Shown: in pieces, positions 1 to 16,669 of the stretch
Layout of the letters: each line of letters starts with the position of its first letter
How positions within the stretch are numbered: position 1 is the first letter of the stretch
NCBI RefSeq assembly: GCF_022701215.1
Contig: NZ_CP089976.1
Span: 1,440,001 to 1,472,000 of the forward strand
From: Moraxella nasovis
Lineage (GTDB): Bacteria; Pseudomonadota; Gammaproteobacteria; Pseudomonadales; Moraxellaceae
DNA length: 32,000 nt
Reading direction: 5' to 3'
Position numbers and translations under genes: made by a program
The notes under the pieces: generated by a model
Told to the model about the DNA's origin: nothing
Databases searched by the model: none
Seen by the model: only the letters and a program-made list of their open reading frames with translations

Positions 1-1756
1 GTCGCCAGCAGTGCGGATAGCTGTGAGTGATTTTGGTGTGATTGAGTAGGTGTCCGCTCTGTGCCAGCGTTTCAATGATTTTTGGCTGTGCCTTATAAAT
101 ATGCTCACCGACAAAGACTTTCGCCTCGTCCAGATACACGCCATTACCACCAACGGGATTTTCGGTCGGTAGATTGTTGGCACGCCCCACGTTATAATCG
201 TCCACACCGTGTGCAGGGGCGGTATGCACAAGCCCTGTACCGCTGTCGGCGGTAACGTGGTCGCCTGTGATGATTGGTACTTGACGTTCGTTAATAAGTG
301 GGTGCTGGGCTTTTAGGGTGCTTAAATCGCTCCCCTTAACAGTCGCCAAAATTTCTACATTTTGCAAACCGATATTTTTGGCAAAATCATCCACCAAGTC
401 ATGAGCCACGATAAAACTTGCCGTTTGAGCGATTGGCATAGGATTATCAATCGTATAATGCCACTTTTTGCCATGTTCATTTTCTACGTCTTTTTGATAC
501 ACGCCACCGATGTTTTGTACGGCTTTTTTGGAGCGTTCGTTACCTTGATGAATTTGAAAACGCACCGTGTTGCGGTGTTTAAAGGCGTAATTAAGCAGGG
601 CTTGTTTGATTTCGCCATTTGCCCCTGTTCCCCAAAATGCAGGCGTGATAAAGGTAAAGCCAATGCCAACGGTGCTTGTGGCAGGATTGTCATCATAAAA
701 ACGGGTCGTGCCGACAATCTCGCCTGTGGCTTTATGGATAATGGCAAAAGCTTTTTCTTTCACCGCTTTATCAAAAAACGGCTCAAACACTTCTGGCAAA
801 TGGCGTTTTTCTGGCATTAGCTCCCAAATGGTAGGGTCTTTGGCTTTGTTAAATAACGCTTCTTTGTCGGCTTTGCTTAGGGTTTTTAATAAAAAGTTGT
901 CGCTTTCAAGTTCGCTTGGCATGGCAAATGGGGCGACTTTTTCGCCTTTGATAACCGCATAATCAAAGTCGGCATGGGCGGTAATTGCTTGGTTGGCAGG
1001 CAGTGTCCAAGGGGTCGTTGTCCAAATCACCGCTTGCACGTTGCCATCAATATCTTTTAGGGCGGGCAAAGCATCTTTATTGACAATGTCAAAGCCCACA
1101 TAAATGGCGTCAGAGGCTTTATCTTGGTATTCTACTTCCGCTTCGGCAAGAGCAGAGCCACAGTCTAAGCACCAGTTGACAGGCTTTAGCCCACGCACGA
1201 TATGACCGTTGTCATAAATTTTGCCTAAGGCTCGCACGATGTTCGCTTCTTGGGAAAAATTCATGGTAAGATACGGATTATCCCAATCGCTAAGCACCCC
1301 CAAGCGTTTAAAATCAGCCATTTGCAGTTCAACTTGGCTTTTTGCGTAGTCACGGCATAGGCGGCGAAATTCGGTCGCATCAACTTTTTGACCGACTTTA
1401 CCTACTTTTTGTTCAACCTTTTGTTCAATCGGCAGTCCGTGACAGTCCCATCCTGGTACAAATACAGCATCAAATCCAGATAGGTTCTTAGATTTAGTGA
1501 TGATGTCTTTTAGTACCTTATTAACGGCATGACCTAAATGAATCTGACCGTTGGCATACGGCGGGCCGTCGTGTAGGATATATTTTGGCAGGCCTTTTTT
1601 GGCGGTGCGTACTTTGTCATAAAGACGGTCTTTTTCCCAAGCGTCAAGCCATTTTGGTTCACGTTTGGCAAGGTCAGCTCGCATGGGAAAAGGCGTGTCG
1701 GCAAGGTTTAAGGTGGCTTTATAATCTGTTTGTGGGGTGTTTTTTTGGTCGGTCAT
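1..1756 (-). CDS. ileS: Isoleucyl-tRNA synthetase, N-terminal ~585 codons; the 3' end runs off the left edge of the window
   Basis: Absent from the supplied ORF track because it is open at the window edge. Manual minus-strand translation from the ATG (complement of 1754-1756) gives [37 protein letters not shown]...[25 protein letters not shown] (HIGH motif), [23 protein letters not shown] and [16 protein letters not shown] (CP1 editing motifs), ending ...HSYPHCWR. No stop was seen in the stretch hand-translated codon by codon (about 1030 to 240); the remainder was read by eye, and the ORF track lists no separate minus-strand ORF elsewhere in the region. Confidence 0.95.
422..937 (-). other. 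In-frame GNAT (Acetyltransf_3 / RimL-RimJ-like) N-acetyltransferase domain inserted in the IleRS CP1 editing domain (residues ~274-445 of the ORF)
   Basis: Between ...[12 protein letters not shown] and [33 protein letters not shown], which are nearly adjacent in E. coli IleRS ([30 protein letters not shown]), lie 172 extra residues: [172 protein letters not shown]. The pattern DPxIWExxP...VFExFF...TGEIxGxxRFY...IGxTFxxxxFWGxGxNxExKxxLLxYAF...VxFxxxxxNxRSxKAxxxIG matches stand-alone RimL-like GNATs, including the acetyl-CoA loop (WGTGANG). Confidence 0.7.
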
Positions 1757-1942
1757 GGCGATGTCATCAGTAAATTGGCTAAATTATTATTAAAACTGTC
1801 AATTATAGCCTAAAACGCTGTTTTGATAAAGGTTTGTTGGTTAAAAATAAGATTTATATCGGGTTTGGTAAATTTATTTAAAGAGTTTATTTAAAGAGTT
1901 ATAGTGTTGCTGGCTTAACCAATCGTGATGTAGGTTTGGTCT

Positions 1943-3218
1943 TTATAGGGGCAACGACTGACTTGGGTTTGGCTCATAAATTTTTTGATAAATGACTTGA
2001 TAGTAGCCATCTAGTTTTTTATCGTCAATTGTGTAGATGTTTTTGATGGCTTGATGATACAGTATCGTGAATGTCAATATCACCAAAACACCACTGATTG
2101 CTCCATAAAAGGCAGTCAAGTAGCCCCCATCAATGACCCATGTGGTCAATAGCACGCCCAATGGCACAAATACGATACACACCGCCAAAAAGATGAATTC
2201 AAAACTTTGGCGAATGTCTTTGGGGGTGGCGGTTGAGCGAATGTGCGTGCTGTTGATATTAAACATCACAACGCCCATGCCAATCATCATCAAAGCCAAC
2301 AAAAACACCATAAAATGCTCACTTGTGCCAAGCCACACCCCAAAAGCCACAAAAAAGACACTGGCAGATGTGGTGCGATGATTGCCAATTTTTTGATTTA
2401 ATATTTTTATCAAAAACACACTGCCAATAATCATGCCAAGACCAAACGCCCCTTCGCCAATGCCAATATAAAAGGCGGATAATTTGAAGGTGTGGGCGAT
2501 TTGATAGGGAATGACATACGCTATCAGCGGGGTGATGATGAAGTTGGCAAGAGCGGATATGGCGACCATCAGCCGTTCAATGGGGTTGAAAAGTAGTATG
2601 CTTAGGGTGTTCGTGTTCGTATGCGATTGCGAATGCACTTGTGCTGTCTTTGGGTGTGATAAGTTGATGTGATAAAACAATAAAAAACTGACCGCAGACA
2701 GCCCAAGGCAGAGACTTAAAATGGTCAAGGTATCAAAATAATAAATCAAAAATCCAGAGATGATGGGTGATAAGATGGTGTTGATAGAATTGACAAAGCC
2801 ACGCATTTTAAATCCGCCACTTTTGTTGTCATCTTGGTACAGCTCGTTCACAAGGCTTGTGCCGATGGGAGTTAAAATGATAGAAAAAAATAGACGTGAT
2901 GATAAAAATGATACCAAAAATCAGATGGTTATCATGGCGAAATAATACTGCCAATCCTAGGCTTGATAAACCACAAAAAACCAATAAGAGCTTTTTGTGG
3001 TTGAGATGACGTTTGCTTGATAAATAAGAAAACAACAACAAAAACACCACTTGACACGCCCAAGAAATGCTAATAAACACCCCCAAAGGCTGTGATAGAT
3101 GTAGCGTATTGATCATCAGCCACGCAAATACAATGCCAATGGTTTTGATGGTAGTATTAAGGAGCGTCTCGGAGAGTTGATATAAATAAAAGTCTTTATT
3201 CGTTGAAAGATAAGACAC
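1943..3218 (-). pseudogene. MFS transporter (EntS/MFS_3-like, ~420 aa if joined) split by a frameshift into ORFs 2829-3218 and 1943-2917
   Basis: Both ORFs are strongly hydrophobic multi-TM sequences and are consecutive. The upstream frame ends ...IIFIITSIFFYHFNSHRHKPCERAVPR*, while the overlapping frame reads ...SSRLFFSIILTPIGTSLVNELYQDD.... Removing one T from the minus-strand T7 run (A7 at 2884-2890) joins them as ...ITSIFSIILTPIGTSLVNEL.... The 'start' of the downstream ORF is only an in-frame TTG. Confidence 0.7.
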
Positions 3219-5000: not shown

Positions 5001-5753
5001 ATGACAAAAATCTTAATCATCGGTGCAGGTAAATTGGGCTTGCCATTAGCCAAAATGCTAAAGACAGCTTATGATGTTACCATTGTCAGCCGTAGCCAAA
5101 AGCCTATTGATGGTGTACGCCAAGTTATCAAGGATGTCGCCACTTTGACGACAGAAGATTTTAAAGAAAGTTTTGATGTGGTTTATGTGATTTTAAGCCC
5201 AAGCGAACGCACCATCTTAGGCTATCTACAAACTTATGTAAAAACAGCTCATCCAATCAGCGAATCAGTTTACTCCCCAAACACTCATCTGATTTATGTC
5301 TCATCAACAGGTGTATATGGTCAAAACCAAGGTGAGATAGTGGATATTCACACCAACCCAAATCCTGCCACGCCTAAGGATCGCTGTCTATACGCTGCTG
5401 AGCTATCCTATCAAGCATTTTGGCAACATCAACTGACAATCGTTCGCCCAAGTGGATTGATTGCAGGTGAAATTAGTAGCAGTAAGTACTTGGTGGAGCA
5501 GGCTCTTAAGGCAGCAAGTCCAATGGAGCGTCATTGGCTAAATATGGTCAAAAGACAGACGGTGATTGTAAATTTGGCAAAGATGGCACAACTTGCGGTA
5601 TCAAAACGTATCTTTGAGCAGTATATTTTAAATGAAAGCTGTCAGCTGCGGCATGAGATTTATAATAAAATCCGCCAAGACTATGGCTTATCTGCCATCA
5701 CGCCAAGTGATGCACCAGTTAGCGGTAAGCGACTTGTCGGCAACTTCGTTTAA
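5001..5753 (+). CDS. NAD(P)-binding Rossmann-fold protein (YeeZ-like / atypical SDR-epimerase family)
   Basis: N-terminal dinucleotide-binding motif KILIIGAGKLGLPLAKML, followed by LIYVSSTGVYG and LTIVRPSGLI, which are typical of NAD-dependent epimerase-like proteins. Function unknown. Confidence 0.55.
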   Translation: MTKILIIGAGKLGLPLAKMLKTAYDVTIVSRSQKPIDGVRQVIKDVATLTTEDFKESFDVVYVILSPSERTILGYLQTYVKTAHPISESVYSPNTHLIYVSSTGVYGQNQGEIVDIHTNPNPATPKDRCLYAAELSYQAFWQHQLTIVRPSGLIAGEISSSKYLVEQALKAASPMERHWLNMVKRQTVIVNLAKMAQLAVSKRIFEQYILNESCQLRHEIYNKIRQDYGLSAITPSDAPVSGKRLVGNFV

Positions 5754-5814
5754 GCTTAGAGCTACGCATATGAATAGCTATGCCAGAGCATGTCATAAGT
5801 AAACAAAGCTACAC

Positions 5815-6350
5815 ATGAGAAGTCTGCCAACGCTTTAAGGGATAAAATCAAGCTTATTGAAAATTATTTTGGCGGTGCTTATCAAGGCAAACGTGGTCTC
5901 GTGGTGTTGGCGGTAAAACGGCTGTATTTGGCTTATTAAGACATGATGGTTTAAAGCGTGATGGTAAGCTTATGCGATGGTGATAAAAGACACAAAGGTA
6001 ATACGCTAATGCCCATCATTACAAGTTTAAGTAAACTTAATCGTGGTGTTTATACAGATAGCCATAAGAGCTATAATGCTTTAGATGCAAGTGTTTTAAG
6101 CATTTTAGAGCAAATCATTCAAAGAGTTTATCGATAAACAAAACAGAGCCAATCACATCTAGCACCCGAAGCTTTTGATCGTAAGCTTAAGCGTGCACTA
6201 CGCAAATATAACGGCATTGACAAGAAAAACTTCCATCTATTTATTAAAGACGAAAGTTTTGTTTGAACTAGATTTGCCTATAATTAGCTGCCTATAATCA
6301 GCTTAAAGTATTAAGAAACTGGTGTGGCATTTAAGGACAATCTACTACAG
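5815..6350 (+). mobile_element. Decayed IS1595-family (IS1016/ISXO2-like) transposase remnant: N-terminus missing, at least 4 frame disruptions or stops
   Basis: Fragments in shifting + frames follow the collinear order of the IS1595 DDE transposase core: IENYFGGAYQGKRG; GKTAVFGLLRHDG; GNTLMPIITSLSKLNRGVYTDSHKSYNALDASV; HFRANHSK; LKRALRKYNGIDKKNFHLFIKDESF; LKVLRNWCGI*. No intact ORF of 61 aa or more appears in the track here. Confidence 0.65.
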
Positions 6351-6363
6351 ACCCTAAATAAGC

Positions 6364-6579
6364 CTAAATAACCCAAGTTTTTAGCACAAATTCAATCACA
6401 ATTTTAGCAAGAAAGCCCATAAAACCTGCCCCTAATGCCACAAAAATCCAAAATGTTCCTTGCTTGCCTGCATTGGACTTTTTGGAGATATCCCACATGA
6501 TAAAAAATAAGAATGCGATGAAGATGGGTAATAAAACGTACAGCCCAAGCATGGTGATGGTTTGATCGGAGATGGTCAT
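6364..6579 (-). CDS. Small two-TM membrane protein, DUF2788-like
   Basis: 71 aa with two hydrophobic helices separated by DISKKSNAGKQG. Size and layout resemble DUF2788 proteins of gammaproteobacteria (recalled, not searched). Confidence 0.5.
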   Translation of the reverse strand: MTISDQTITMLGLYVLLPIFIAFLFFIMWDISKKSNAGKQGTFWIFVALGAGFMGFLAKIVIEFVLKTWVI

Positions 6580-6762
6580 GATAATCTCTTTTAAATAAGT
6601 TTATTGGCATTATAACACAACTTACGGTGAGCTATTTTGTGAAATCAGCCAAAAACAGTCTTGATTTTGCTATTTTTATACGAATTTTAACCTAAGATTA
6701 AAAAATTTTGTTAGAATAAAAGTTTTCTTTATTAAAACCAAAAAGCACGAATAAGGCAAGCT

Positions 6763-8598
6763 ATGACAACCCAAACCGATCCGAAAACAAACCAATTAAC
6801 CCAACTTTTTCAAGCCACATTAGACGAGCTAAAAGCTGAAGGTACATTGCCTGCTGATTTTTACCCTCCGATTAATTTGGTCAGACCCAAAGACACAGCC
6901 CATGGGGATTTTGCATGTAATATTGCTTTGATGAGTGCTAAAAAAGCAGGCAAAAACCCTCGTGAACTTGCCGAAAGATTTTTGGTGCGACTAAATGCGT
7001 CTGATTTGGTTGAAAAGTGTGATGTAGCAGGTGCAGGGTTTATTAATGTGTTTTTGAATTTAGATGTTAAATTTGCCGTGCTAGATGAGATTTTTACAAA
7101 AGGCGAGAAGTTTGGCTTGTCTTGTATCCATAGTGGTAAAAAAGTACAAGTTGAATTTGTGTCTGCCAATCCTACTTCAAGCCTACACGTTGGACATGGG
7201 CGTGGGGCAGCGTATGGCATGAGTGTGGCTAACCTTTTAGAAGCCACAGGTTATGATGTGTGCCGTGAGTATTATGTGAATGATGCTGGGCGTCAGATGG
7301 ATATTTTGGCGACCAGTACTTATTTGCGTTACTTGCAGGCGTGCGGTGAAGCCATTACCTTTCCTGTGAATGCGTATCAAGGCGACTATGTCGTTGATTT
7401 TGGCAAAGTTTTGTTTGATAAATATGGCGATAAATACCGCCATGCCATAAGCGATGTAATAAAAGATGTGCCTGCTGATGCGGTTTTTGAGATTCAAGAC
7501 GGCGAAAAAGTGCAAGTATCAGGCGATAAAGAGTTACACATTGATGGGCTAATCGCAAACACGAAAGCCCTACTTGGTGACGCAGGATATGAGATATTTT
7601 TAGAATTTGCGTTAAACCATATCTTAGATGATATCAAAGAAGACTTAGCAGAATTTGGGGTAACTTTTGAGTGTTGGTATTCAGAACGAACCTTAAAAGA
7701 TAAGATTAATGATGCACTGGCTGTGCTTGACGCCAATGGGTATTTATACGAAAAAGATGGCAATATTTGGTTTAAATCTACCGCTTTTGGTGACGAGAAA
7801 GACCGTGTGGTTAAGCGTGCTAATGGGCTTTTAACTTACTTTGCTTCTGATATTGCATATCATAAGGATAAGTTTGATCGTGGGTTTGATACGGTGATTA
7901 ATGTGTGGGGTGCTGATCATCATGGCTATATCCCTCGTGTGAAGGCAGCGTTATCGGCAATGGGTATTGATCCTAAGCGATTAGAAGTCATGCTGGTGCA
8001 GTTCGTGGCATTATATCGTGGCGATGAAAAAGTAGCAATGTCTAGTCGCAGTGGGCAGTTTATCACCTTGCGTGAATTGCGTGAAGAAGTGGGTAATGAT
8101 GCGGCGCGTTTTTATTATGTGGCACGCACGCCAAATGTACACATGGATTTTGATTTAGAGCTTGCCAAGTCCCAAAGCCGTGATAATGCGGTGTATTACA
8201 TTCAGTATGCACACGCACGCATTTGCCGAGTGTTTGAAAGACTAGAAAAGTTTGGCGTTACCTTTGATGATCAAATGGCAAAAAATGCTCAGCATTTACT
8301 TGCGCTAGAGAGTGAAAATGAGCTGATTAAGCGTTTGTCTGCCTATTGTGAAACCATCGTTAAAGCTGCCAACGCTCGTGAACCACATATTTTAGCCAAC
8401 TATCTAAAAGACTTGGCAAGTGATTTTCACGCTTGGTATAATGACAATCGAATCTTGCCAAAGGGTCTGTCTGACAATGCAGCGACAGCAGAAGAGATAA
8501 CGCTCATGCAAGCACGTTTAAGACTGTCTTTGGCAGTCAAGCAAGTGCTTGCCAATGGTCTTGGGCTTTTGGGCTTATCAGCACCTGATGCGATGTAA
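6763..8598 (+). CDS. argS: Arginyl-tRNA synthetase
   Basis: 611 aa. Contains SANPTSSLHVGHGRGA (HIGH), YYVNDAGRQMDIL, VWGADHHGY, MSSRSGQF (KMSK-equivalent) and the C-terminal anticodon-binding DALR region. AAGG lies upstream of the ATG. Confidence 0.97.
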   Translation: MTTQTDPKTNQLTQLFQATLDELKAEGTLPADFYPPINLVRPKDTAHGDFACNIALMSAKKAGKNPRELAERFLVRLNASDLVEKCDVAGAGFINVFLNLDVKFAVLDEIFTKGEKFGLSCIHSGKKVQVEFVSANPTSSLHVGHGRGAAYGMSVANLLEATGYDVCREYYVNDAGRQMDILATSTYLRYLQACGEAITFPVNAYQGDYVVDFGKVLFDKYGDKYRHAISDVIKDVPADAVFEIQDGEKVQVSGDKELHIDGLIANTKALLGDAGYEIFLEFALNHILDDIKEDLAEFGVTFECWYSERTLKDKINDALAVLDANGYLYEKDGNIWFKSTAFGDEKDRVVKRANGLLTYFASDIAYHKDKFDRGFDTVINVWGADHHGYIPRVKAALSAMGIDPKRLEVMLVQFVALYRGDEKVAMSSRSGQFITLRELREEVGNDAARFYYVARTPNVHMDFDLELAKSQSRDNAVYYIQYAHARICRVFERLEKFGVTFDDQMAKNAQHLLALESENELIKRLSAYCETIVKAANAREPHILANYLKDLASDFHAWYNDNRILPKGLSDNAATAEEITLMQARLRLSLAVKQVLANGLGLLGLSAPDAM

Positions 8599-14784: not shown

Positions 14785-15405
14785 ATGATAAATAAAAAGC
14801 AGCAGTTTGAGCAGCGTGAGCAAAGCATACTAGCGGCAGCAGAGCAGCTGTTATTAGAATCTGGCGAAGGGAATTTAACGCTAGATAGCTTAGCCTGTCA
14901 TTTAGACTTAGCCAAAGGCACGCTGTATAAGCACTTTGCCAGCAAAGATGAGTTGCTACTGCAAATCATCATCGAGCATGAAAAACGCTTATTTTGCATG
15001 AATAATGTCGATGATGGTGCGGCAGCGGGAATTGTGCGTATGGTGCTGCAGCAGCTGCGTCTGCCTGTGCGTGCGATGATTTTTAATCATATTGAAGAGC
15101 GGCTTGCAAGTGTGTCATCGAGATTGCACACTCAATTTAAAGAACTATACCGCATTCGTCGAAAGCGGATGACTCGTTTGTCTGTTATCGCTCAGCAGTA
15201 TCTTGATGAGCAGCACAGTAGCATGACTGTCAAAGATTATATGTCGAGCATTTGGGCAGTTGGTCAAGGTGGGGCAGGATTGCTAAATTCTAGCTTTTAT
15301 CAGCGATATTTGGGCGATCGAGATGCTTTAGAATATACTTGGGTGGATCAAATTTTATCCTTGCCACGGCTGTATCCTAAGGTGGATGATGATGCACTGG
15401 CTTAA
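14785..15405 (+). CDS. TetR/AcrR-family transcriptional regulator
   Basis: N-terminal HTH: ILAAAEQLLLESGEGNLTLDSLACHLDLAKGTLYKHFASKDELLLQII. The track ORF begins at an in-frame TTG (14767); the first ATG is at 14785. It is divergent from the desaturase gene, and its stop lies 20 nt inside pilM. Confidence 0.85.
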   Translation: MINKKQQFEQREQSILAAAEQLLLESGEGNLTLDSLACHLDLAKGTLYKHFASKDELLLQIIIEHEKRLFCMNNVDDGAAAGIVRMVLQQLRLPVRAMIFNHIEERLASVSSRLHTQFKELYRIRRKRMTRLSVIAQQYLDEQHSSMTVKDYMSSIWAVGQGGAGLLNSSFYQRYLGDRDALEYTWVDQILSLPRLYPKVDDDALA

Positions 15406-16669
15406 GCGATTGTTTGGCGTATCGCACTGTGCGTCTGATGTGATGGCGGTGCATTTTGGCGATGATGCTGTATTTGTTTTACAATTGCAAAAACACCGTA
15501 GTCGCATCCATGTGTCTTATTATGATAGCCAAAGTTATGACAGCCAAAGTTACCCTAAAGCTGGGACTGCCAAAGATGGCAACGACATCGGTATAGATGA
15601 GGCTACCATAGCTTTACAGCAGATTATTAGTCGCTCAAAAATCCCCTTTAGAAAAGCCATTACCTGTATGCCGACTGCCGAAACGCTAAGTCGCACGCTG
15701 TCTATGCACCCTGAACTTACCGATGATGAGATTGATGAGCAAATTTGCATGAATGCCCATCAGCATATCCCTTATCCGCTGTCTGATGTGGCGTATGATT
15801 TTACAGCTACAGGGTCTGATGATGTCGGCATGAAGCAGGTTTTACTTGTGATTTGCCGTGAAGATTCGCTAGGAAGGCAGCTTGATGTGTTGGCACAGGC
15901 TGGCTTAGAGGCTAAAGTGGTAGATGTTTATGACCACGCCTTAGCACGAGGACTAAGCTTGGTTTTATCGCAGTTTTTGGGGCGTGTGGTGGCGTTGGTT
16001 GATATTGGCTGGGATAAAAGCAGATTTTATGTCGCAGACTTGACAGATATCAAAAGTGTAGATGAGTTTGGGGGTTTTGACTACCATCGTGAATATTTTT
16101 GTGGCGAGTATTGGCAGGCTAAGACGACGTTAAAGGCTGATTTTGAAAAATCCCAAGACATATCGCAGGTAGATGACTTTTATACAGATTCAATCCAGCC
16201 AACGATCGCTTGGGGTAGCACGCTATCTGATAAAGATATTAGTCACCATGCGTTGGTAGAGCCGACTAAGCTTCAAGAGCAAGCAGACACATCAGAGCAA
16301 AAATCTTCTTATGTTATTAGTTTTGAGGCCTTGACGGACATGCCAATTAGCCAAACGAATGCAGCGGATGATTGTGATCTTGATGATGCGTATGTCAGTT
16401 ATATGAGCGGACAAATTGCCACAATGCTAGAACACTATCAGATGGCAACAGGTGTTCGTGTGGATGTGGTGATGTTGTCAGGCGGTAAGCGTCAGCTAGA
16501 GCAAATCGCTAAAGATATAAAAAAACAAGAGGGCATACCTTGTTATGTGGCAAATCCCCTAACGGATATGGCGATAGGTCAGCGTGTGGATTTGGCAAGA
16601 ATAACCAAAGATTTGGCGCGTTTATTTGTGCCTTTTGGGCTTGCATTAAGGGCGTTCGATGATTGCTAA
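15386..16669 (+). CDS. pilM: Type IV pilus assembly ATPase-fold protein PilM (unusually long, 427 aa)
   Basis: CMPTAETLSRTLSMHPELTDDEIDEQICMNAHQHIPYPLSDVAYDF, VVDVYDHALARG, LVDIGWD, VVMLSGG and the C-terminal FGLALRAFD match the PilM actin-like fold. It is followed by pilNOPQ. Three consecutive ATGs (15386-15394) follow AAGGTGG. Confidence 0.85.
   Translation: MMMHWLKRLFGVSHCASDVMAVHFGDDAVFVLQLQKHRSRIHVSYYDSQSYDSQSYPKAGTAKDGNDIGIDEATIALQQIISRSKIPFRKAITCMPTAETLSRTLSMHPELTDDEIDEQICMNAHQHIPYPLSDVAYDFTATGSDDVGMKQVLLVICREDSLGRQLDVLAQAGLEAKVVDVYDHALARGLSLVLSQFLGRVVALVDIGWDKSRFYVADLTDIKSVDEFGGFDYHREYFCGEYWQAKTTLKADFEKSQDISQVDDFYTDSIQPTIAWGSTLSDKDISHHALVEPTKLQEQADTSEQKSSYVISFEALTDMPISQTNAADDCDLDDAYVSYMSGQIATMLEHYQMATGVRVDVVMLSGGKRQLEQIAKDIKKQEGIPCYVANPLTDMAIGQRVDLARITKDLARLFVPFGLALRAFDDC

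Follow-up and report, generated by a model that had tools for sequence, protein, structure and literature searches.

RimJ and RimL, the founding members of the acetyltransferase family PF13302, are protein N-terminal acetyltransferases. ItaT, AtaT and TacT, and putatively PacT, are GNAT toxins that N-acetylate aminoacyl-tRNA in trans, and EF-Tu does not accept N-acetyl-aminoacyl-tRNA, which peptidyl-tRNA hydrolase clears; ItaT reportedly targets Ile-tRNA(Ile). To our knowledge, whole foreign enzymes have rarely been acquired by bacterial aminoacyl-tRNA synthetases (aaRS). Within PF13302, RimL and MccE were described to acetylate the alpha-amines of aminoacyl-nucleotides, and a catalytic role was reported for the serine of the N-x-x-S motif in such GNATs (PMC8072286). 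The PacT family was reported to arrest translation; its own substrate is unproven according to the authors, who describe the PacT-type acceptor channel as too narrow for proteins (PMC9561280). In tiarin clusters, GNATs are found together with resistant aaRS copies, both conferring immunity to these aaRS-targeting compounds (bioRxiv 10.64898/2025.12.02.691738).

The Moraxella isoleucyl-tRNA synthetase (IleRS) analyzed here carries a GNAT domain within its own chain. A reading made earlier from the sequence only knew of no described GNAT embedded in an aaRS. This did not stand, since the NCBIfam entry NF040702 ('ileS_w_GNAT') is a curated model of this exact architecture with the GNAT at model positions ~275-445, and RefSeq uses the product name 'isoleucine--tRNA ligase, N-acetyltransferase domain-containing' (e.g. 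WP_159771519.1, WP_314233707.1 and WP_313426037.1). NF040702 is a descriptive annotation model of the kind 'exception' without attached function, structure or publication, and our search of the literature on an IleRS-embedded GNAT found no paper describing the architecture. It was by far the best family for the protein encoded in the window (the whole stretch of 32,000 nucleotides that was analyzed), with 1114.9 bits over model positions 1-585 of 1100; the cutoff of 1999 bits refers to the whole protein, of which the window holds 585 of ~1100 residues. At full length, the relatives L002 (2213 bits) and L003 (2244 bits) pass this cutoff and the insert-less P0004 (1855 bits) fails. The insert alone matched model positions 275-442 with 253.5 bits. 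Nevertheless, the lineage of the window is distinct, as its insert shares 64-65% identity with L002 and P0258, the nearest members. Thus, the architecture itself is already known; new are the single origin of the inserts, their scattered hosts, the conflict between insert and host trees, the low GC content and 12 replaced positions.

The gene and its signatures are located in the window as follows.

2..1756, minus strand: N-terminal part of ileS, type-1 IleRS, 585 codons, a continuous open reading frame (Pfam tRNA-synt_1, 4e-64)
1529..1540, minus strand: HIGH signature HLGH, aa 73-76, intact
1004..1024, minus strand: threonine-rich editing motif WTTTPWT, aa 245-251, intact
206..241, minus strand: 12-residue editing-site motif, aa 506-517, followed by VDDY, intact
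1802..1829, minus strand: candidate sigma-70-like promoter TTATCA-16-TATAAT, ~45 nt upstream of the ileS ATG, a consensus match only (10/12 positions)

The gene starts with the ATG at position 1756, and its frame is open up to the left edge of the window, beyond which the gene extends. All 585 codons were translated without stop or frameshift, in agreement with the unbroken minus-strand ileS frame claimed by the sequence-only reading. Its description of an intact HIGH signature with intact editing motifs on both sides of the insert was likewise correct, as HLGH, WTTTPWT and the motif at aa 506-517 were all found. The KMSKS position lies outside the window, and K[LM]SKS was seen in full-length relatives. 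The ileS model TIGR00392 scored 445 bits on the window fragment compared with 176 bits for MupA and 161 bits for MupB. Judged by its signature and editing motifs, the window protein is a type-1 bacterial IleRS and not of the MupA/MupB type.

In the complete genome of M. osloensis the GNAT-bearing ileS is located within the canonical ribF-ileS-lspA-fkpB operon, and the neighbours of GNAT-bearing ileS genes are ribF or an MFS gene upstream and lspA downstream. A separate stand-alone GNAT gene adjoins ribF in M. osloensis; it is unrelated to the insert. The synthetase sequence flanking the insert is under very strong purifying selection (omega 0.02-0.05). Because of the canonical operon in M. osloensis, these flank values and the intact HIGH, KMSKS and editing motifs, the GNAT-bearing IleRS is the cell's housekeeping copy. 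No biosynthetic cluster was found near GNAT-bearing ileS genes. Moreover, an antitoxin-like neighbour (RHH or Xre/HTH) was neither present at the ileS locus nor conserved beside the stand-alone homologues, and PADLOC gave no defence-system match.

The insert and its surroundings comprise the following features.

938..964, minus strand: CP1 beta-strand preceding the insert, DYAVIKGEK, aa 265-273 (strand in the in-context model, and alignment)
419..934, minus strand: 172-aa insert (aa 275-446), a complete GNAT domain with two short linkers in place of a 5-residue CP1 beta-hairpin turn (alignment, AlphaFold2)
506..892, minus strand: match to Pfam PF13302 (Acetyltransf_3), aa 289-417, 59.5-62.6 bits
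611..637, minus strand: acetyl-CoA pyrophosphate-binding loop FWGTGANGE, aa 374-382 (W-G-x-G-A-N kept in all embedded copies)
530..541, minus strand: N-E-R-S motif, aa 406-409 (N406, R408 and S409 invariant)
392..418, minus strand: CP1 beta-strand following the insert, SFIVAHDLV, aa 447-455 (strand at aa 444-451 in the in-context model, and alignment)

The boundaries were taken from an alignment with seven IleRS of Moraxella and Psychrobacter. The extra segment lies between '...DYAVIKGEK' and 'SFIVAHDLV...', where canonical relatives have just 'S[DE]KG[HQ]'. The earlier boundaries of 422-937 are therefore off by one codon at most, and ordinary orthologues from these two genera, which could have carried a segment of equal length, have five residues instead. 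PF13302 matched with 59.5 bits in context and 62.6 bits for the insert alone (cutoff 25.4; E=8e-17), and PF00583 also matched, so that the GNAT assignment holds. The insert can be aligned end to end with stand-alone GNATs of 174-177 aa, which together with the PF13302 match bears out the proposal of a complete RimJ/RimL-type GNAT grafted in frame into CP1, the editing domain of this essential enzyme. Accordingly, AlphaFold2 predicted a complete GNAT fold for the insert alone (pLDDT 92.6, pTM 0.87) with the full topology in the order b1-a1-a2-b2-b3-b4-a3-b5-a4-b6-b7, and a Foldseek search with this model reached a probability of 1.00 to many GNAT crystal structures with TM up to 0.84. In context, AlphaFold modelled the 585-aa fragment poorly (pLDDT 61).

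The CoA-binding loop FWGTGANGE was present as previously read and is conserved across the embedded copies. W375, G376, N380 and K384 do not vary among the five embedded lineages and recur in at least 99% of the stand-alone relatives. S409 is the positional equivalent of the catalytic serine in PA3944 (S148), RimL (S141) and MccE (S553), and the PA3944 alignment covers this region. One detail of the sequence-only reading fell away, namely that the insert starts at an internal methionine. M279 is replaced by V or I in other lineages and is therefore not a vestigial or internal start. No intein signature was found at the junctions, where the residues are variable, and the fold is GNAT rather than Hint. 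A search for direct or inverted repeats at the insert junctions gave no meaningful ones; a 10-nt repeat, ATGCCAA(G/T)CG, near both ends of the insert is absent from other lineages and probably due to chance.

This insertion is found, identically placed, in at least five Moraxella lineages, with the complete genome of M. osloensis among them, and the M. osloensis cluster carrying the IleRS-GNAT has 842 members. This recurrence excludes assembly chimerism. That the insertion is an assembly chimera, or a decaying pseudogene backed by a second canonical ileS, is effectively refuted: the junctions are identical across independent assemblies, among them the complete genome and the 842 cluster members, the frame is intact in the window, in L002-L006 and in P0258, and the operon position is canonical with strongly constrained flanks. 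One related contig, L001 (Logan SRR32022414), fits decay, as its reading frame is split by the loss of 1 nt from an A/T homopolymer located 27 nt past the insert. With its recurrence, its intact motifs and purifying selection on the insert itself, the graft is real, as had been supposed.

Embedded copies were listed by a genome scan, exact look-ups and an exhaustive HMMER search. Word-indexed protein searches with the insert alone or with a 10-sequence insert profile returned only stand-alone GNATs and missed every IleRS-GNAT, even P0005; such searches are therefore poor at retrieving embedded domains. Distances among the inserts (0.48-0.91) are smaller than those from an insert to any stand-alone GNAT (0.99 or more), and the GC3 of the insert is below that of every window of the host gene, a low-GC signature. 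Since the distances between inserts are the smallest and GC3 lies below the host gene, the embedded GNAT inserts share a single origin and point to a foreign source. Nevertheless, GNAT-bearing IleRS occur at at least four separate places in the Moraxella IleRS tree, beside insert-less sisters that are 86-89% identical. The topology of an insert quartet (95% bootstrap; ~170 columns, distance method) conflicts with that of the hosts (100%). From these sequence comparisons, the distribution of the GNAT-bearing form looks accessory. Moraxella plasmids and phages were searched for the insert domain and no carrier was found. No hint at function came from the genes around 67 stand-alone homologues, which are a lactonase and a LOG-like gene in Flavobacterium and vary elsewhere.

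We propose that a whole stand-alone RimJ/RimL-class GNAT gene would have been grafted once, in frame, at the tip of the CP1 beta-hairpin. The donor may have been of low GC content and have belonged to a subfamily of ~175-aa GNATs often found in Flavobacterium and other Bacteroidota. Since then, the graft would have been kept by selection and transferred between, or lost from, Moraxella ileS alleles.

The insert evolves ~5x faster than its flanks, and close relatives live without it. Both observations would fit a non-catalytic passenger GNAT that is tolerated because the hairpin tip is permissive, or that serves only for binding or steric effects; selection would then maintain no more than its foldability and so spare the essential enzyme from disruption. 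Moreover, 12 positions that are near-invariant in the stand-alone relatives are systematically changed in the embedded copies, including the Q/H of the 'WEQHP' motif, which is also in line with a passenger. However, the new residues at these positions are conserved among the embedded copies. Omega of the insert is about 0.13-0.3 (0.13-0.21 in unsaturated pairs), well below 1, which shows purifying selection on the insert. The embedded inserts of the five lineages share only 52-65% identity, and of the 60 family-conserved positions 30 have the same residue in every lineage, including W-G..N..K and N-x-R-S; foldability alone would not hold the surface CoA loop W-G-x-G-A-N..K and N-x-R-S invariant at such divergence. 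We therefore consider a passenger quite unlikely. Judged from the retained motifs, the embedded GNAT is apparently active, and the retained catalytic positions together with the 12 conserved replacements suggest the same chemistry with a remodelled acceptor site. Synthetase residues co-varying with the presence of the insert were searched for and none was found except a junction residue; convergent substitutions in the synthetase of GNAT-bearing lineages were not found either. Apart from the graft, the synthetase is unaltered.

The closest solved relatives of the insert are in the PacT (PA3270) family (E=1e-9 with a single sequence, 3.5e-18 with a profile, ~23-30% identity), which Foldseek also recovered with TM 0.76-0.80. 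ItaT/TacT and MccE/RimL were not the closest solved relatives, and the MccE C-terminal domain (MccE-CTD) and RimL were absent from the PDB sequence and profile matches at E <=0.01. The nearest RimJ/RimL-like PDB entries were weak (3IGR, 3.7e-4; 1NSL, 7.7e-3). Structural neighbours of the insert model include RimJ (3IGR) and a putative ribosomal-protein acetyltransferase (2FCK).

As a tentative explanation, held with clearly less than even confidence, we propose that the insert is a graft in the housekeeping IleRS that acts as an immunity GNAT in cis and is kept by selection. It would be an active acetyl-CoA-dependent N-acetyltransferase, carried on two linkers of ~10 residues, with isoleucine-type ligands engaging IleRS as acceptors through their free amino group. 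N-acetylation would inactivate IleRS inhibitors that mimic the aminoacyl-adenylate or enter as Trojan horses, as MccE-CTD, RimL and TfxH do in trans. This detoxifying role is favoured over aminoacyl-tRNA acetylation. Against it, covalent fusion to the target is not obviously needed, and by sequence the PacT family is closest whereas RimL and MccE are not significant neighbours. Mupirocin has no amine, and we know of no IleRS-directed amino-bearing inhibitor from Moraxella habitats.

Alternatively, the tethered GNAT could N-acetylate aminoacyl-tRNA(Ile) in cis, either as a brake on translation through Ile-tRNA(Ile) or as a second proofreading step on mischarged Val-tRNA(Ile). The aminoacylated CCA end is handled by the very domain in which the insert is located, and Ile-tRNA(Ile) is said to be the target of ItaT. 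The kinship with the translation-arresting PacT family points in the same direction, although the PacT substrate is undemonstrated (PMC9561280) and the identity to PacT low. Besides, if the enzyme constitutively acetylated what it makes, this would be futile or toxic; an antitoxin-like partner is absent; and for a core quality-control device a patchy, transferable distribution would be unusual. Since the hydrolytic editing site is fully intact, a second proofreading route is not obviously needed. Taken together, aminoacyl-tRNA acetylation seems rather unlikely. Its more specific form, in which the GNAT would acetylate aminoacyl-tRNA(Ile) during shuttling of the CCA end from the synthetic to the editing site and back, as a brake responsive to acetyl-CoA (a domesticated activity like that of the toxins ItaT or PacT) or as non-hydrolytic proofreading by which Val-tRNA(Ile) is tagged for peptidyl-tRNA hydrolase, we regard as unlikely.

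The RimJ and RimL activities and the neighbours 3IGR and 2FCK raise the question of a protein substrate. The GNAT, whose catalytic motifs are kept, could acetylate lysines or the N-terminus of IleRS, or a partner such as a ribosomal protein or EF-Tu, and thereby link the activity of IleRS, or translation, to the acetyl-CoA status. This is decidedly unlikely, as no lysine or other synthetase residue co-varies with the GNAT, the PacT-type channel would be too narrow for proteins (PMC9561280), and the patchy distribution speaks against a core regulatory role.

If the GNAT detoxifies antibiotics that mimic Ile-AMP, it would be the first known resistance enzyme located physically within its own drug target and relevant to IleRS-directed drugs. 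If it acetylates aminoacyl-tRNA, translation would be controlled or proofread in a new way, and this would be a new kind of aaRS activity. Moraxella species are naturally transformable, M. osloensis can be cultured and the insert-less sisters serve as natural controls; therefore, the question is directly testable.

Compared with described systems, the insert combines known elements in a different arrangement. The GNAT toxins ItaT, AtaT, TacT and PacT differ from it in that the insert has no antitoxin partner and lies inside an essential enzyme; moreover, PA3270 has an alanine at the catalytic serine position, whereas the insert keeps the serine. The INS subdomain of IleRS2/IleRS-A is similarly nested, present or absent across lineages and apparently repeatedly lost (bioRxiv 10.64898/2026.02.03.703510). 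However, INS is a tRNA-binding element of ~80 aa in the ARD2 anticodon-binding region, neither an enzyme nor in CP1, and the INS survey has no mention of a GNAT or acetyltransferase (bioRxiv 10.64898/2026.02.03.703510). With MccE-CTD and RimL the insert shares the PF13302 family, the N-x-x-S serine position and, if the preferred detoxifying role applies, amine acetylation aimed at aminoacyl-nucleotides that bind aaRS. Those enzymes are separate proteins or fusion partners of a biosynthetic enzyme, whereas the insert lies within the synthetase. TfxH and the other tiarin GNATs resemble it in that GNAT and aaRS form a pair of immunity determinants directed at a Trojan-horse aaRS inhibitor; there, the processed warhead is acetylated by the GNAT. 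In contrast, they are encoded by separate genes in a biosynthetic cluster, with ArgRS as the target in the studied case, whereas here GNAT and synthetase form one polypeptide encoded in a housekeeping operon.

The first 585 residues of the isoleucyl-tRNA synthetase (IleRS) are encoded by window 1..1756 on the minus strand in a single unbroken frame, and the translation contains the following features:

1756, minus strand: ATG start of ileS, the gene extending past the left window edge
aa 73-76: HLGH
aa 245-251: WTTTPWT
aa 506-517: [12 protein letters not shown]

In an alignment with seven Moraxella/Psychrobacter IleRS, an additional stretch of 172 residues (aa 275-446, window 419-934) stands between '...DYAVIKGEK' and 'SFIVAHDLV...', at a site where canonical relatives carry only the five-residue turn 'S[DE]KG[HQ]'. 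The sequence-only reading had placed a complete GNAT domain inside a continuous ileS ORF, and its coordinates proved correct to within one codon. Its 'internal Met' (M279) did not hold up, as this position is V or I in other lineages. No intein or repeat signature was found at the insert junctions. A 10-nt direct repeat on the coding strand, ATGCCAA(G/T)CG, lies near both insert ends (window 430-439 and 913-922) and its copies encode 'MPS...' and 'MPI...'; other lineages do not conserve this repeat, which is probably due to chance.

PF13302 (Acetyltransf_3) matches aa 289-417 with 59.5 bits when scored in context and with 62.6 bits for the segment by itself (cutoff 25.4), PF00583 matches as well, and stand-alone GNATs (174-177 aa) align with the insert from end to end. 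Therefore, the alignment of the insert, the Pfam matches and the end-to-end GNAT alignment confirm the original observation, including the GNAT identity of the segment. An AlphaFold2 model of the insert, with a 75-sequence alignment as input, showed a complete GNAT topology between coil linkers of ~10 residues each (pLDDT 92.6, pTM 0.87). The in-context model was poor overall; the CP1 strands aa 265-273 and 444-451 were still strands on either side of the insert, consistent with an insertion at the tip of a hairpin.

A genome scan with the insert profile revealed further intact, full-length ileS ORFs (1101-1134 aa) with the insertion at precisely this site:

L002: Moraxella sp. MAG S24M_Sa_22
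L003: M. osloensis FLMOS1, complete genome (CP083409.1), ileS at locus 5140-8529, 1129-aa product
L004: Enhydrobacter sp. UBA4755
L005 and L006: two further Moraxella MAGs

Two more lineages are represented by a Logan contig (L001/P0005) and by the 1095-aa cluster representative P0258, the fifth IleRS-GNAT lineage, and the M. osloensis 90% cluster comprises 842 members. An assembly chimera, for which a check had been proposed, is ruled out by the same insertion at an identical site across lineages including a complete genome. All GNAT-bearing proteins retain HIGH, K[LM]SKS and the two editing motifs, and no synthetase columns co-vary with insert presence except junction residue 271. In L001 (Logan SRR32022414), a GNAT-bearing ileS of a second species is called as 466-aa and 147-aa products because one nucleotide is missing from a gaaa/tttt homopolymer at ~2520-2540, 27 nt past the insert; either the reads are in error here or the gene is truly a pseudogene.

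In M. osloensis the GNAT-bearing ileS lies within the canonical ribF-ileS-lspA-fkpB operon, and an MFS transporter gene precedes ileS in L002 and the window. Therefore, by its gene neighbourhood, the GNAT-bearing ileS is the housekeeping orthologue. The surroundings include:

1943-3218, minus strand: MFS transporter gene immediately preceding ileS, split in two overlapping ORFs (2829-3218 and 1943-2917)
6763-8598, plus strand: normal-looking ArgRS, 611 aa, ~5 kb from ileS
15386-16669, plus strand: start of the type IV pilus pilM cluster
L003 3097-3633, minus strand: separate stand-alone GNAT (Acetyltransf_1, 178 aa) just upstream of ribF

With the intact 409-aa L002 orthologue as tblastn query, the MFS gene gave one HSP each in frames -2 and -3, and the break falls between 2884 and 2973, close to an A-rich run. 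Either the gene is a pseudogene with a frameshift, or the split comes from a sequencing error. The ribF-adjacent GNAT of L003 is unrelated to the embedded one (BLASTP E=2.1). Natural competence in Moraxella is known to require type IV pili.

Nei-Gojobori omega was 0.13-0.21 for the insert versus 0.02-0.05 for the flanks in unsaturated M. osloensis-group pairs (dS ~0.12-0.24), and 0.12-0.32 for the insert in deeper pairs. Therefore, the insert is under purifying selection, about 5x more relaxed than the synthetase core. Overall, the domain graft is genuine, conserved and maintained by selection.

This architecture is already catalogued as NCBIfam NF040702.1 'ileS_w_GNAT' (product name 'isoleucine--tRNA ligase, N-acetyltransferase domain-containing'), a model of 1100 positions with its cutoff at 1999 bits, which scored as follows:

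Insert alone: positions 275-442, 253.5 bits
Window fragment (585 residues of the gene): positions 1-585, 1114.9 bits
L002: 2213 bits, passes
L003: 2244 bits, passes
P0004, an insert-less IleRS: 1855 bits, fails

RefSeq WP_159771519.1, WP_314233707.1 and WP_313426037.1 bear its product name. Therefore, the earlier belief that no aaRS-embedded GNAT had been catalogued was wrong, and the window protein is a new, diverged lineage of an NCBI-catalogued, uncharacterised family. Full-text literature searches found no paper on the architecture, and no acetyltransferase is mentioned in a survey from 2026 on the evolution of IleRS domains (bioRxiv 10.64898/2026.02.03.703510). The 1129-aa IleRS of M. osloensis FLMOS1 is labelled 'GNAT family N-acetyltransferase' in GenBank (UAY37542.1) and that of Moraxella sp. 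K02 'hypothetical protein' (BFN00013.1); some annotation pipelines are misled by the embedded domain.

Kimura distances are 0.48-0.91 among embedded inserts and at least 0.99 to any stand-alone GNAT, and this closer mutual relationship points to a single acquisition. The stand-alone relatives are ~175-aa proteins mostly from Flavobacterium, Sphingobacterium and Chitinophagaceae. GC3 of the insert is below that of every same-sized host-gene window:

L002: insert 0.40, host 0.47-0.60
L003: insert 0.38, host 0.45-0.53
L001: insert 0.32, host 0.54
Window: insert 0.42, host 0.46

After removal of the insert, GNAT-bearing IleRS occupy at least 4 separate positions in the synthetase NJ tree, each adjoining insert-less sisters that are 86-89% identical. 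Four-point bootstrapping supported (WIN,L002)|(L001,osloensis) for the insert (95%) and (WIN,L001)|(L002,osloensis) for the host (100%), WIN being the window copy. These scattered positions and conflicting quartets suggest that the cassette was probably exchanged between ileS alleles and/or repeatedly lost. Natural transformation is known from Moraxella species and would fit cassette exchange by recombination. By eye, the N-terminal flank of P0258 mixes L002-like and window-like features, and its ileS may be a recombinant allele.

When 1.84 billion cluster representatives were searched exhaustively with HMMER, P0258 (250 bits) was the only long protein with the domain; a stand-alone GNAT (124 bits) ranked second, and the best 150 matches contained no further synthetases. 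Searches of phages and Moraxella plasmids did not find the domain. The GNAT subfamily of the insert recurs as a fusion partner, as seen from P0265, P0321 and P0370: it forms the C-terminal half of a 328-aa tandem double-GNAT, follows a MurQ/SIS-like domain in a 442-aa protein and precedes a cupin-like region in a 536-aa protein (the latter two domains judged by eye).

We compared the 60 positions conserved at >=90% in 74 stand-alone relatives with five embedded lineages. Half of them (30/60) are identical across these lineages, including the CoA-loop W375-G376..N380..K384 and N-x-R-S, and 18 are mixed. The remaining 12 differ from the stand-alone relatives in a way that the embedded copies in turn conserve (P292T, F298K, H314M, Y319H, Y356D, R372P, Y379A, L386A, V395R, Q410K, K420Y), the twelfth being a column deleted in all of them. 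From this pattern we infer that acetyl-transfer chemistry was kept and the acceptor site remodelled. P0258 has FCHDN where other embedded copies have an otherwise invariant FYDDN.

The housekeeping IleRS is otherwise unaltered, and the GNAT is folded (in the model), selected and intact in its donor-site and catalytic motifs; that it is a non-catalytic passenger appears rather improbable. The embedded GNATs carry a clade-specific acceptor-site signature, and their distribution resembles that of an accessory, transferable element. Primary amines are the acceptors of characterised PF13302 enzymes, those of RimJ and RimL being protein N-termini; a role of the insert in protein acetylation or regulation seems quite doubtful. 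Immunity against Trojan-horse aaRS inhibitors repeatedly pairs a GNAT with a resistant aaRS copy (bioRxiv 10.64898/2025.12.02.691738). On the basis of this amine chemistry and this co-occurrence, we tentatively favour a cis-tethered N-acetyltransferase that would N-acetylate amine-bearing Ile-AMP mimics and thereby neutralise them at their target, IleRS.

Foldseek neighbours of the insert are generic RimJ/RimL-like GNATs (3TCV, 3FBU, PA3944, TTHA1799, PacT/PA3270, 3PZJ). By sequence, the closest solved structures belong to the PacT family (1e-9 with a single sequence, 3.5e-18 with a profile), and PacT was described as a translation-arresting toxin whose substrate, according to its authors, is still to be determined (PMC9561280). 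Acetylation of Ile- or Val-tRNA(Ile) by the insert is a possible but unlikely activity. RimL and MccE, which are PF13302 members like the insert, also acetylate aminoacyl-adenylate analogues (PMC8072286). In the PA3944/RimL/MccE group the serine of the N-x-x-S motif is critical for catalysis (PMC8072286), and this motif has its counterpart in the invariant N406-E-R-S409 of the insert.
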